Shown here: piece by piece, positions 25,811 to 31,962 of the stretch
How positions within the stretch are numbered: the stretch's first letter is position 1
Layout: the number at the start of each line of letters is the position of its first letter
NCBI RefSeq assembly: GCF_002854065.1
Contig: NZ_CP024154.1
Length of the DNA: 64,000 bases
Source of the DNA: Escherichia coli
GTDB taxonomy: Bacteria > Pseudomonadota > Gammaproteobacteria > Enterobacterales > Enterobacteriaceae
Strand: one strand, 5' to 3'
Made by a program: the position numbers and the translations under genes
The notes under the pieces: generated by a model
Database searches by the model: none
Seen by the model: the letters and a program-made list of their open reading frames with translations, nothing else
What the model was told of the DNA's origin: nothing

Positions 25811-26083
25811 GCGATCCCAGGGAGAGTGGGTGGCTCTGGCCCGGAGGAAGTCTCTTTTCAACTAACGTTACCAGAATATCGTTATATTCACCTGATCGCA
25901 ATCTGTTCGTTACAGTCTATTGTTCCGGGAGTAGCGATATCGCCTGAAACAAGTATAATCAGCAAGTTAGCCTTGTCTGGAGACTTACCTTCGCATCAAT
26001 CCATTTGCCGTATTTTCGTAAAATTCAACAGGAAATATTCAACGGGAGTGAGAGAACTGCTGTCCGGGGAGGAGGTACAGACG

Positions 26084-26117
26084 CAAAAAAACCGACTGGT
26101 GAGGCCGGTTTTTTTGC
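26084..26117. terminator. bidirectional terminator-like hairpin (copy 2)
   Basis: AAAAAAACCG-ACTGGTGAG-GCCGGTTTTTTT, nearly identical to copy 1. Confidence 0.5.
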
Positions 26118-26431
26118 GATTCCGGATCGAAGTTGGTAGCCCTGACCGGAAGATAACTGCCTATAACTGACTATGAAATAATACGGCTGAAATAATATTT
26201 CTGCAAGCACAGTATAAGTATATACTCGGTGTGTCAGCTTTGAGGCACGTTCTTTCCGGCATATCGTTCACCGGGATGAACAGGTTGCAAGTCCTGGCCA
26301 AAACATCAGGTGGTGCTGGTTTTGGTGCTCTGGCCGGAGAAGAACTGTCTATAACTGACACTATAGAAAACGTGGCGACAGGCAATGTAAGGGCAAACCA
26401 CGGTGTTCTTTCTCCATTGATGGAGAAGCGG

Positions 26432-26527
26432 ATGATTAACCTGTTAATCATCGTTCTCAGGGCGGTTGTTGCTGTGGCTAACGCAGTGATAGCTCTCCTG
26501 GAACTGATCCGGGAACTGGTTGACTGA
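26432..26527 (+). CDS. small hydrophobic peptide (31 aa), candidate type I toxin-like membrane peptide
   Basis: SD GGAGAA 5 nt upstream of ATG 26432; MINLLIIVLRAVVAVANAVIALLELIRELVD; hairpin terminator downstream. Confidence 0.35.
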   Translation: MINLLIIVLRAVVAVANAVIALLELIRELVD

Positions 26528-29240: not shown

Positions 29241-29483
29241 TTAGTGAATATTCTTGCCTGGCCTTTCGGCAATATCAATCCCCTGAAGTTGCATGGATAT
29301 CCCATGCCCATTGAGCATCTGGCTGTCCATGGAATTGATACCGCATGTCATCATCAGGTTGTAACAAAGCGTACTCAGCATGGTGAGCGCCTCTTCTGAG
29401 GATTTACAATGTGTATTCATAAGGGCCAGAAACTGCTCAACAACATCCGGGTTAATGCTGGTACTGTGTATTTCATCCTTCAT
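29241..29483 (-). CDS. hypothetical small protein (80 aa)
   Basis: SD AAGGA 6 nt upstream of ATG 29483. Confidence 0.4.
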   Translation of the reverse strand: MKDEIHSTSINPDVVEQFLALMNTHCKSSEEALTMLSTLCYNLMMTCGINSMDSQMLNGHGISMQLQGIDIAERPGKNIH

Positions 29484-29664
29484 GATGTGTCCTTGTTTTT
29501 TATTATTTTGCATTTCAGAAAATAACACGATGCCTGCAGCCCGGAAAACAGATGTGTGCACACGTAGTCACTTTCCGGCTTTATTTCTGTCCCTGACACA
29601 AAATACGTGGTGGCATGAAAAGGATTGTGGCGGACAGGAAAACGATTAGAATAGCGGCGGGCGC

Positions 29665-29958
29665 TTGAGGCTGTATGCCGAAAGCGTTTTGTGGACGGCA
29701 TGTAGCAGAAAGCCCCAGGCGATTTTTTTATCAATCAACCCAGGGCCCACTGTAATGCCTCAACAACATTATAGTAGCCCGATGACGGCCGAAAGGCAAT
29801 GGAGGGGCTGCGATGCCACAACGAACGTTTTTAATGATGTTAATCGTCGTCTGTGTGACGATACTGTGTTTTGTCTGGATGGTGAGGGATTCGCTTTGCG
29901 GATTTCGTATCGAGCAGGGAAATACGGTGCTTGTGGCAACGTTAGCCTACGAAGTTAA
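29665..29958 (+). CDS. pndC: pndC (mok-like) overlapping leader reading frame of the pnd locus
   Basis: Reading frame that overlaps and ends inside pndA in a different frame, as in hok/mok loci. Confidence 0.5.
   Translation: MRLYAESVLWTACSRKPQAIFLSINPGPTVMPQQHYSSPMTAERQWRGCDATTNVFNDVNRRLCDDTVFCLDGEGFALRISYRAGKYGACGNVSLRS
29690..29780 (-). ncRNA. pndB: expected position of PndB (Sok-like) antisense RNA; not delimited from sequence
   Basis: Placed by analogy to hok/sok architecture only. Confidence 0.25.
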
Positions 29959-29965
29959 ACGTTAA
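29813..29965 (+). CDS. pndA: PndA, Hok-family type I toxin (50 aa)
   Basis: MPQRTFLMMLIVVCVTILCFVWMVRDSLCGFRIEQGNTVLVATLAYEVKR; hairpin terminator at about 29975-30005. Confidence 0.85.
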   Translation: MPQRTFLMMLIVVCVTILCFVWMVRDSLCGFRIEQGNTVLVATLAYEVKR

Positions 29966-30102
29966 CGGGCAACACGGCGGCAGGACATCTGCCGCCGGAT
30001 TGTTGCGAAGGCTGACCTCAATGCGCCTTGTTTGTCTTTTTTACCGGACGACTGCTGGTTGCTGCTGTCCGGCAGCTATTATTTTTTCCGTCCTGTGCGT
30101 CA

Positions 30103-31689
30103 TCAATTATGACAGTCGCTCTCATTTGGTTGTCTCTGGTTAGATGTATTATTAGATATTTTCGGGGTAATTCGATAAAAGTTATCCACTTCAGCACCAG
30201 ACTGAATGATATATGCAATAAGATCTAAACGATGAATCTCGTATCGTGTACGTAACTCCATCATTTCACGCCATGCTAAAATCCTTGATGTTTTCAGTTC
30301 AGCCTCTATAAGTTTCCATGTGTTTGTTGAGATGGCATGTTCTTCCAGCTGACGTAACGAGAACCTATCACTAATGACCAACCATCCCCATCCTCGAGTA
30401 TGTGCCCATTTGCGACCTGCATTACTTTTTATTCTCGTGAGACTCAAGGTCATTCGGTCTGTTGGCTTCACTTCCATAAGTAGGCACCGACCATCAACTG
30501 TCGCAATGAGTAAATCTGGATAGTATTTTTTTGATTTGTTTTTAAAACAATATGGAATAGAAAATGGTTGTTCTTGATAGAAAAGAACCTGATCGCAACA
30601 TTCTAATAGATTCATTATTTTAAACTCAAGCCCTGATTCGTACTGGACTGTACGACCTAATTTTTGAGAGTAAAAGAATCCAGATATGTCAGTATCATTA
30701 ACCGCTCTCTGTGAACATAGCTGTTCTACGGGGGGAGGAGGTGCGATATATTTTGGCCAATGTGTATTGTCTAGCCATTTACTGAATATGAACTCAACTC
30801 TTTCTTTCTTGATTCGGGCTCTTTCCTGAGCGTGAGCGTGTGCTAATTCTGCTCTTCGTTCACGTAACTTCTGCTTTTGTAATTGTGATATTAATGAGAG
30901 CGAATTTTTTATTTCATCTCGTCTTGCTTTAGGAATGCCTGCGGCAAAAATGATGAATTTGGCGGCTAACTCAGAGGATGTAACGAAATCCCGATGAACA
31001 ATACGATAAATCCATACTGCTATATCATATGGTGAATTACCTATTGAGTTAATAAGGGCTTTAAGGCAAGCTCCAGGTGTCCCTTCATAGCGAGATTTAG
31101 CAGCTAGTAAGCCAAGGGCTCGTTCCTGAAGTTGTCTTACCCTTTCACGGGAAATTCCTAATTTGACGGCAATATCTGCCAGAGAATGAGGTGAATCATC
31201 TGTGCCGAGTCGCATTAGAAGAATATATTGATGTCGTTTATTAGATAAACTTTCGATAGCAGAATGAATTAGCATAATGACATCATGTTCATCGGCTATA
31301 TAATCTTTAAAATCTGTATTGGGTTGGCAGAGGGGGAGTGGGGTATTTTGTTTAAAACTATTCTTTTGTATTTCAACTTTATCATGAGCAATTGTTTTTG
31401 CAGTGCTCAATGATATTAAATTATTGATGATACTATTGTGTTCTTGGCGAGGAATCTTGTTGAAGTAATTGCTGAGGTCATTCACCGTGTTTATATCGTT
31501 GAACTCAAGAAACTCAGAAGGAAGCAGGCGTTTGATTGCTCCACGTATTCCCCCGGACGATCGTTGATGTGTTTGAGTAAGTTTTTTTAGCGAGACGCCC
31601 TCCGCTATGGATACGAGAAGACGCTGTAACTCTTCAGTATTCCATGGAGTACCATGTCGTGCTGGAAAATTGCTGCGGGATTCAGACAT
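30103..31689 (-). CDS. 528-aa protein with N-terminal HTH domains and C-terminal PD-(D/E)XK-like nuclease motif, in AT-rich DNA
   Basis: Sigma-70 region-4-like HTH (SLADIAVKLGISRERVRQLQERALGLL); Myb/GcrA-like N-terminus (PWNTEELQRL); C-terminal YYPD...LLMEVKP. Confidence 0.55.
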   Translation of the reverse strand: MSESRSNFPARHGTPWNTEELQRLLVSIAEGVSLKKLTQTHQRSSGGIRGAIKRLLPSEFLEFNDINTVNDLSNYFNKIPRQEHNSIINNLISLSTAKTIAHDKVEIQKNSFKQNTPLPLCQPNTDFKDYIADEHDVIMLIHSAIESLSNKRHQYILLMRLGTDDSPHSLADIAVKLGISRERVRQLQERALGLLAAKSRYEGTPGACLKALINSIGNSPYDIAVWIYRIVHRDFVTSSELAAKFIIFAAGIPKARRDEIKNSLSLISQLQKQKLRERRAELAHAHAQERARIKKERVEFIFSKWLDNTHWPKYIAPPPPVEQLCSQRAVNDTDISGFFYSQKLGRTVQYESGLEFKIMNLLECCDQVLFYQEQPFSIPYCFKNKSKKYYPDLLIATVDGRCLLMEVKPTDRMTLSLTRIKSNAGRKWAHTRGWGWLVISDRFSLRQLEEHAISTNTWKLIEAELKTSRILAWREMMELRTRYEIHRLDLIAYIIQSGAEVDNFYRITPKISNNTSNQRQPNESDCHN

Positions 31690-31962
31690 GATTTTATCTT
31701 TATGTTTTCTAGGTACTGCCTTGAGTGTGTGGATATGATAATTATTTATAATGATATTGTTATCTTTTATAGATAACTGATATGCAGAATTGTATTGATT
31801 TTGTCTACAGTGGGCAAGACAGTGCTAAGAATTTGTGGGGAAAACATAGAGACTCCATGCGGCGTCCTGAGATAGACGGCAGACAGGCATTCTGCCTGAA
31901 AAGAAAAAGCCGGTTCAGAGAAAACCGGCTGACGGATTATCGTCTAACAGTTGATAGCTACC

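Follow-up and report, generated by a model that had tools for sequence, protein, structure and literature searches.

Is the Hok-like reading frame that lies between trbA and excA on this plasmid part of an intact addiction module, how far does that module extend, and does it help to keep the plasmid in its host? These questions are raised by a first-pass annotation of the window (the whole 64,000-nucleotide stretch of Escherichia coli DNA analysed here), which placed an intact pndCA killing locus of the Hok family at 29665-30005. Our results make it very probable that the stretch 29625-30033 carries pnd of the R16 type in intact form, a type I toxin-antitoxin module of the Hok family, which would work by the mechanism described for hok/sok of R1 and for pnd on plasmid R483. 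As such, it is an already known and ordinary module of I-complex conjugative plasmids.

Identity and extent of the locus

The toxin gene occupies the centre of the locus:

29813..29965, plus strand: pndA, Hok/Gef-family toxin gene of 50 aa, with the Shine-Dalgarno sequence GGAGG at 29801-29805

Its product, MPQRTFLMMLIVVCVTILCFVWMVRDSLCGFRIEQGNTVLVATLAYEVKR, matches the Pfam family HOK_GEF (PF01848) with an E-value of 1.3e-12 and 47.5 bits (cut-off 22). With LMMLIVVCVTILCFVWMV and RDSLC, it has both features of the family, an N-terminal hydrophobic helix and a conserved SLC motif. PndA also scores against the NCBIfam models HokA (66.7, curated cut-off 89) and Hok (41.5, curated cut-off 73), too low to pass in either case, and the exact protein is public under two names, 'Protein PndA' (PNDA1_ECOLX) and 'Hok/Gef family protein'. 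When the gene was compared with reference pndA sequences, the CDS proved to be that of R16 pndA over 153/153 nt and without a frameshift, so that both the intact locus and the 50-aa Hok-type toxin claimed earlier are borne out.

The RNA evidence agrees with the protein evidence. With 124.7 bits and an E-value of 5e-28, the Rfam model RF01794 aligns from end to end (1-157) with 29659-29815 of the plus strand. Although this model is named 'sok antitoxin', it is a sense-strand model whose consensus runs from tac (GGGUGCUUGAG) to the toxin AUG; therefore, the match annotates the leader of the toxin mRNA and not the antisense gene. Finally, a 551-bp region around pnd is 100% identical in many plasmid records, including pCT (NC_014477). 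The number of plasmid records matching the locus ranges from 1,888 (for the 551-bp region) to 1,980; of the former, almost all are conjugative plasmids from Escherichia, Salmonella or Shigella. The Rfam score and the 100% identical plasmid records place the features of pnd far beyond chance, and at the sequence level the identity and intactness of the locus are supported by protein, RNA-model and whole-locus comparisons alike.

The interval originally proposed does contain the locus but is too short at both ends. Homology among pnd alleles extends from ~29623 to ~30030-30033, and the conserved unit, ~29625-30033, includes a promoter and the pairing of the two mRNA ends, tac and fbi. Left out of the earlier interval were the promoter (29625-29652), six nucleotides of the transcript start (29659-29664) and the fold-back element fbi (30017-30028). 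The transcript is delimited by the following features:

29625..29652, plus strand: putative pnd mRNA promoter, with the -35 hexamer TTGTGG at 29625-29630, a 16-nt spacer and the -10 hexamer TAGAAT at 29647-29652
29659..30033, plus strand: conserved body of the pnd mRNA, with +1 at 29659/29660, extending to just beyond fbi, as placed by the start of the Rfam leader and allele homology
29975..29997, plus strand: GC-rich 3′ stem-loop with a perfect 9-bp stem (29975-29983/29989-29997) and a 5-nt loop
30052..30088, plus strand: terminator-like hairpin followed by a T-run, found by a terminator scan, where the primary transcript may terminate

A generic promoter scan did not flag the pnd mRNA promoter in the window, where the -35 hexamer matches the consensus at 3/6 positions, and flagged the homologous TTGTTA-16-TAGAAT in the IncI1 plasmid pESBL. 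We infer the activity of this promoter, as well as that of the antisense promoter described below, from positional homology with flm of F and with the IncI1 alleles.

At the 3′ side, the first-pass annotation had noted a downstream terminator hairpin. The hairpin is there, at 29975-29997, but its role as a terminator does not stand. The full-length transcript must reach fbi at 30017-30028, which lies beyond the hairpin; thus, the hairpin is not its terminator, and the window allele has no T-run at this site. In F flm, the hairpin at the homologous position (GGCGGGC/GCCCGCC) stops just short of nt 361, and the flm fbi stops at nt 393. The mRNAs of hok are 361 nt long when processed and 398 nt when full-length. 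The flm positions fit these two lengths, which makes the pnd stem-loop more likely to be the protective end of a processed RNA. Its stem is invariant in seven pnd alleles and its loop is variable. Thus, the stem-loop is probably the protective 3′ structure of the processed, translatable pnd mRNA. The full-length transcript would end either in the U-rich tract 30029-30050, directly after fbi, or at the terminator at ~30088. The hairpin of the latter is lineage-specific, as it is located on an inserted segment encoding a TnsA-like protein and is absent in relatives lacking this segment. Taken to its farthest candidate end (29659-30088), the RNA has a minimum free energy (MFE) of -170.6 kcal/mol (z -5.97).

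Predicted antisense RNA and folding of the mRNA

Papers on pnd use the name pndB for the antisense RNA and pndC for the mok-like frame (PMC3562002, PMC7602700, PMC5330492). Accordingly, the earlier name pndCA fits the two reading frames but omits the antisense gene. The corresponding features in the window are:

29755..29958, plus strand: pndC, mok-like leader ORF of 67 aa in the -1 frame relative to pndA, with the stop codon TAA at 29956-29958
29771..29799, minus strand: predicted pndB promoter, with the -35 hexamer TTGCCT from 29799 to 29794, a 17-nt spacer and the -10 hexamer TACTAT from 29776 to 29771
29764..29702, minus strand: predicted PndB antisense RNA, the analogue of Sok, with ends placed from the promoter position and a hairpin

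The overlapping mok-like frame recognised in the first pass is real, except that it starts at the ATG at 29755 and not at 29665, a TTG start supplied by the ORF lister. This ATG is at the same position, followed by an open frame, in six of the seven alleles, and in the alignment with F flm it coincides with the ATG that is equivalent to that of mok. The exception is the allele of the IncI1 plasmid pPE13096 (NZ_MW077911.1), in which insertion of one T into the T-run equivalent to 29828-29832 shifts the frames of both pndA and pndC; the record annotates a shortened 'Hok/Gef' CDS alone. The extra T may represent either real decay or a sequencing error in a homopolymer.

With 8/12 consensus matches, the predicted pndB promoter stayed below the threshold of the generic promoter scan. 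At the aligned position, F flm has the antisense promoter TTGCGC-17-TATCCT, and in both pnd and flm the -35 hexamer precedes the toxin ATG by 14 nt. The pndB hexamers are invariant in the seven pnd alleles, with variation at three positions of the spacer. The predicted PndB, which we take to be ~63 nt long, has an unpaired 5′ tail of 12 nt and then a long hairpin with CUUUCU behind it (fold -24.9 kcal/mol, z -3.66), and it is complementary to the Shine-Dalgarno region and the start codon of pndC.

The elements of the mRNA fold, named here after the hok literature (PMC9841398), are as follows:

29659..29669, plus strand: tac, the 5′-terminal element of the mRNA, GGGCGCUUGAG, paired with 30017-30028 in the MFE structure
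29682..29688, plus strand: local complement of tac, AAGCGUU, forming a metastable 5′ hairpin in the MFE structure
29711..29716, plus strand: ucb or anti-Shine-Dalgarno box, AGCCCC, masking the pndC Shine-Dalgarno region AGGGC at 29742-29746
29749..29775, plus strand: target hairpin containing the pndC start codon, with the 9-nt loop CCUCAACAA at 29758-29766, which includes a YUNR-like CUCA
30017..30028, plus strand: fbi, CUCAAUGCGCCU, paired with tac in the MFE structure

The most informative of these structures is the pairing of the two mRNA ends. When the first 14 nt were given a free choice of partner within the mRNA, the best duplex was formed with the 3′ fbi site (-20.3 kcal/mol), and the extreme 3′ end was likewise the best partner in the other six pnd alleles, in F flm and in F srnB. 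The sequences involved differ, being GGGCGCUUGAG/CUCAAUGCGCC in the window, GGCGCUU/GAAGCGCC in flm and GGGUGUCUG/CAGACACCC in srnB. This change of sequence with preserved pairing is genuine covariation at the level of the family. The duplexes were computed for each sequence separately; when hok and srnB were aligned with pnd by MAFFT, the 3′ ends were misplaced, and pairs were not counted there.

In a nascent RNA of 102 nt and in the 3′-truncated RNA, tac is predicted thermodynamically to pair locally instead, 29660-29666 with 29682-29688 in the MFE structures. Another prediction of the same kind is that GCCC at 29712-29715 and GGGC at 29743-29746, the former within the AGCCCC motif common to F flm, are paired in all folds. 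The unconstrained MFE structure of the 3′-truncated mRNA contained no open tac-ucb form, and the pndC Shine-Dalgarno region stayed masked in it. In a constrained fold of the truncated mRNA, the tac-ucb form was 1.4 kcal/mol above the MFE, a modelled energy that fits the published refolding model and does not prove it.

The target hairpin forms a 9-bp helix in the MFE structure, and its stem is invariant in the seven alleles and its loop variable. The loop (29758-29766) spans the second and third codons of pndC, and the 5′ tail of the predicted PndB is complementary to it. Four loop haplotypes occur among the seven alleles (CCUCAACAA, CCUAGACAA, CAUGAACAA and CUUCGACAA), and their distribution crosses the IncK-type and IncI1-type allele backbones. 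Judged from these sequences, the incongruence could reflect either switching of PndB specificity or recombination. On a rather unlikely reading, specificity switching may leave co-resident I-complex plasmids unable to neutralise each other's toxins.

In the fold derived from the window, 96.9% of the cells across the seven pnd alleles hold standard pairs. Sixteen pairs show a change in one partner that still allows wobble pairing, and in the helix 29670-80/29696-706 four of 11 pairs vary and none is broken. Two-sided compensatory changes among the seven alleles numbered zero, and the shuffle control was uninformative for such one-sided variation. Since there are no two-sided changes and the fold was derived from one of the sequences compared (that of the window), the within-pnd alignment is weakly informative and neither proves nor refutes the fold. 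The structural weight rests on the cross-family comparison of tac and fbi and on the Rfam covariance-model score.

Plasmid setting and possible contribution to maintenance

If pnd of the window works as its relatives hok/sok of R1 and pnd of R483 do, the following sequence of events may be envisaged; by this analogy we infer the transcript ends, their processing, the coupling of pndC to pndA and the killing phenotype. The promoter at 29625-29652 would be constitutive and give a stable pnd mRNA of ~370-430 nt. In the nascent mRNA, tac would be locked in the local 5′ hairpin, and in the full-length mRNA it would be paired with fbi at the 3′ end. The ribosome-binding site of pndC would be hidden by ucb and the start of pndA buried in long-range helices, so that the RNA would be neither translated nor bound by the antisense RNA. 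Slow trimming of the 3′ end to the stem-loop at 29975-29997 would strip off fbi, leaving tac free to pair with ucb, and the pndC start region would become exposed. As long as the plasmid is present, short-lived PndB (~29764 to 29702, minus strand) would bind this region, block translation of pndC and, via coupling, of pndA, and the duplex would be degraded. Upon plasmid loss or a stop of transcription, PndB would decay first, pndC and PndA would be made, and PndA would damage the inner membrane by making it permeable.

The setting in which this would take place is, as judged from sequence identity, an IncK2/Z, pCT-like plasmid with an I-complex backbone and an IncB/K-type (R16) pnd allele. The window is 100% identical over 24 kb to plasmids typed as IncK2/Z, and the gene order in annotated identical plasmids is trbC, a DsbC-like (trbB-like) gene, trbA, dqlB, a small hypothetical gene, a thermonuclease gene, an HTH gene, three hypothetical genes, pndA, the gene for a 528-aa TnsA-like protein, excA and traY. 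With trbA, pnd and excA in this order, the placement of pnd between the trb and exc blocks made in the first pass is correct. The further suggestion that this position helps define an accessory slot needs to be modified: the variable slot itself lies between pnd and excA and begins at 30033/30034. In IncK2/Z relatives without the TnsA-like gene, the sequence follows that of the window as far as 30033 and rejoins it at 31875; in between, the window has a 1.84-kb segment (30034-31874) and these relatives have ~157 bp. It follows from the left junction that the slot starts directly after pnd.

Several neighbours of pnd deserve mention. The ORF at 30103..31689 on the minus strand encodes 528 aa with a TnsA-like endonuclease N-terminal domain and sigma-70 region 4. 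In pCT, this protein is known as pCT_066 and described as an 'unusual putative sigma factor', inactivation of which gave no phenotype. PADLOC returned a weak SspB-like match alone for this protein (E 4e-4). A divergent ORF upstream of pnd (29241-29483, minus strand) encodes a conserved hypothetical protein of 80 aa, for which Pfam, NCBIfam and PADLOC gave no match; its DNA is ~80% identical between the window and the TnsA-less IncK2/Z relatives, and pnd is less diverged. In one of these relatives (CP056818.1), a 162-nt 'antitoxin' CDS is annotated at 741-902 on the minus strand, opposite the last part of pndA and the 3′ UTR, and is probably an annotation artefact and not a protein antitoxin. 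The trbA-excA interval also holds a second type I toxin locus (26083-26527). It consists of dqlB at 26432..26527 on the plus strand, a DinQ-like ORF of 31 aa, and an Rfam match to the AgrB antisense RNA at 26083-26170 on the minus strand (47.7 bits vs a gathering score of 40). This locus may correspond to the additional, 'concealed' toxin system that was suspected in pESBL, and it might be one reason why deletion of pnd in pCT had no phenotype.

The experimental record on pnd as a known plasmid addiction module, as it was called in the first-pass annotation, is divided: the function holds for the family, but no effect on stability was seen in pCT, which is 100% identical to the window across the locus. 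In pCT, deletion of pndACB left stability unchanged over ~80 generations, and conjugation, growth, biofilm formation and competition were unchanged as well (competitive index 1.00; PMC4083329). Mapping of the published primers shows that the deletion covers 29754-29983 of the window, with a check amplicon of 29621-30106. On the other hand, inactivation of pnd in R64 led to rapid plasmid loss, as the work of Furuya & Komano is cited in PMC4083329. In the IncI1 plasmid pESBL, deletion of pnd alone was without phenotype and an effect appeared only when par and oriT were deleted too; the pnd deletion let plasmid-free cells survive, but some killing persisted without pnd, leading the authors to suspect another hidden toxin system (PMC7602700). 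As to the toxin itself, PndA of R483 is toxic, and the R16 PndA CDS could not be cloned unmutated (bioRxiv 10.1101/2025.08.07.668861). For the backbone of the window, killing of plasmid-free cells by this intact locus of a proven type would be expected by analogy.

These data leave considerable room, though less than an even chance, for the view that pnd is intact yet makes no measurable contribution to maintenance, being redundant or poorly activated and persisting as a selfish or hitch-hiking element. Redundancy could be provided by partitioning, conjugative re-acquisition or another toxin-antitoxin system. The null result in pCT, the need for a triple par/oriT/pnd mutant in pESBL together with the killing that continued without pnd, and the presence of dqlB with its AgrB-like RNA 3.3 kb upstream all agree with this view. 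However, pnd is strongly conserved, with 1,980 plasmid records, the toxin and leader frames are intact in six of seven alleles, and substitutions at paired positions are nearly all wobble-compatible. Moreover, the pCT assay is blind to post-segregational killing, because it spanned only ~80 generations and left partitioning and transfer intact. As an additional and rather unlikely explanation of the pCT result, the cassette inserted at 30033/30034, which brings a new terminator ~55 nt past fbi, may alter the 3′ end of the mRNA and the kinetics of its processing and so mute killing.

It is improbable, in our estimate, that pnd mainly senses a shut-off of transcription, as in phage abortive infection or rifampicin-like stress, and not plasmid loss. 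The mechanism does need only differential RNA decay after transcription has stopped, and hok/sok, which is reported to exclude phage T4, can be counted in favour of such a sensor. Furthermore, pnd loci were found as rifampicin-inducible killers, going by the title of Nielsen et al. 1991 as given in the bioRxiv preprint. Yet PADLOC has no model that matches PndA, and no defence-island context was seen, the neighbours being transfer genes. That the locus is a decayed, non-functional remnant has next to no probability: decay does occur in the family, as the frameshifts in pndA and pndC of pPE13096 suggest, and the mRNA -35 hexamer is weaker in the window (TTGTGG) than in IncI1 (TTGTTA), but the absence of a frameshift in the window CDS, its identity to the R16 reference and the presence of all RNA elements dismiss this reading.

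With an intact R16-type pnd addiction module on the window plasmid as the preferred reading, the result amounts to confirmation of a routine annotation. Its practical value lies elsewhere. Sequence databases give the label 'Hok/Gef family protein' alone and leave the RNA parts unannotated. The corrected boundaries, ~29625-30033 (or to 30088), should be useful for deleting or cloning pnd; the deletion made in pCT spared the promoter, tac and fbi. Curing strategies based on supplying PndB call for a check of the allele, as the predicted PndB is 7-9 positions off the sampled IncI1 versions.

Comparison with known pnd and Hok-family loci

The closest known system is pnd of the IncB plasmid R16, reportedly described by Sakikawa et al. 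in 1985 and 1989. R16 belongs to the same I-complex (IncB/K/Z) lineage as the window plasmid, and over the CDS, to which the comparison extends, the two pndA genes are identical down to 50/50 aa; the 3′ flank of the window, outside this CDS comparison, carries the TnsA-like insertion from 30034. In the R483 CDS, 10 nt and 4 aa differ from the window. Both reference CDSs were taken from supplement file 10 of bioRxiv 10.1101/2025.08.07.668861.

The IncI1 loci of R483, R64 and pESBL share the architecture of the window locus and are ~90% identical to it in nucleotide sequence over the stretch that begins with the promoter and includes fbi (window 29620-30027). This is the group in which pndA, pndB and pndC were reportedly characterised by Nielsen et al. 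1991, Nielsen & Gerdes 1995 and Furuya & Komano 1996. The tac element, the hexamers of the pndB promoter, the start of pndC and the stem of the 3′ stem-loop are as in the window. By contrast, three PndA residues differ from the window in the sampled IncI1 plasmids, the stretch predicted to encode PndB has 7-9 differences, some of them in the target loop, and the fbi base A30021 of the window is T in IncI1, where the tac-fbi duplex reaches -21.7 kcal/mol compared to -20.3 kcal/mol in the window. The sequences 3′ of fbi are unrelated.

Beyond pnd proper, srnB/srnC of F combines a Hok-family toxin with pairing of the mRNA ends in the same way, but it uses other tac and fbi sequences (GGGUGUCUG/CAGACACCC) and has no U-run after fbi. 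The toxins of hok/sok of R1 and flmA/B/C of F are divergent from PndA in sequence, although they belong to the same Pfam family. The pnd leader is ~25 nt shorter than that of hok/flm, and tac-fbi comprises 11 bp and one bulge in pnd compared to ~7 bp plus extras in flm. Despite these differences, the order of elements in pnd is the same as in hok/sok and flm: tac, its metastable partner, the AGCCCC ucb, the mok-type ORF, an antisense promoter (predicted in pnd) with a 17-nt spacer located 14 nt upstream from the toxin ATG, the toxin, the GC-rich stem-loop and fbi.
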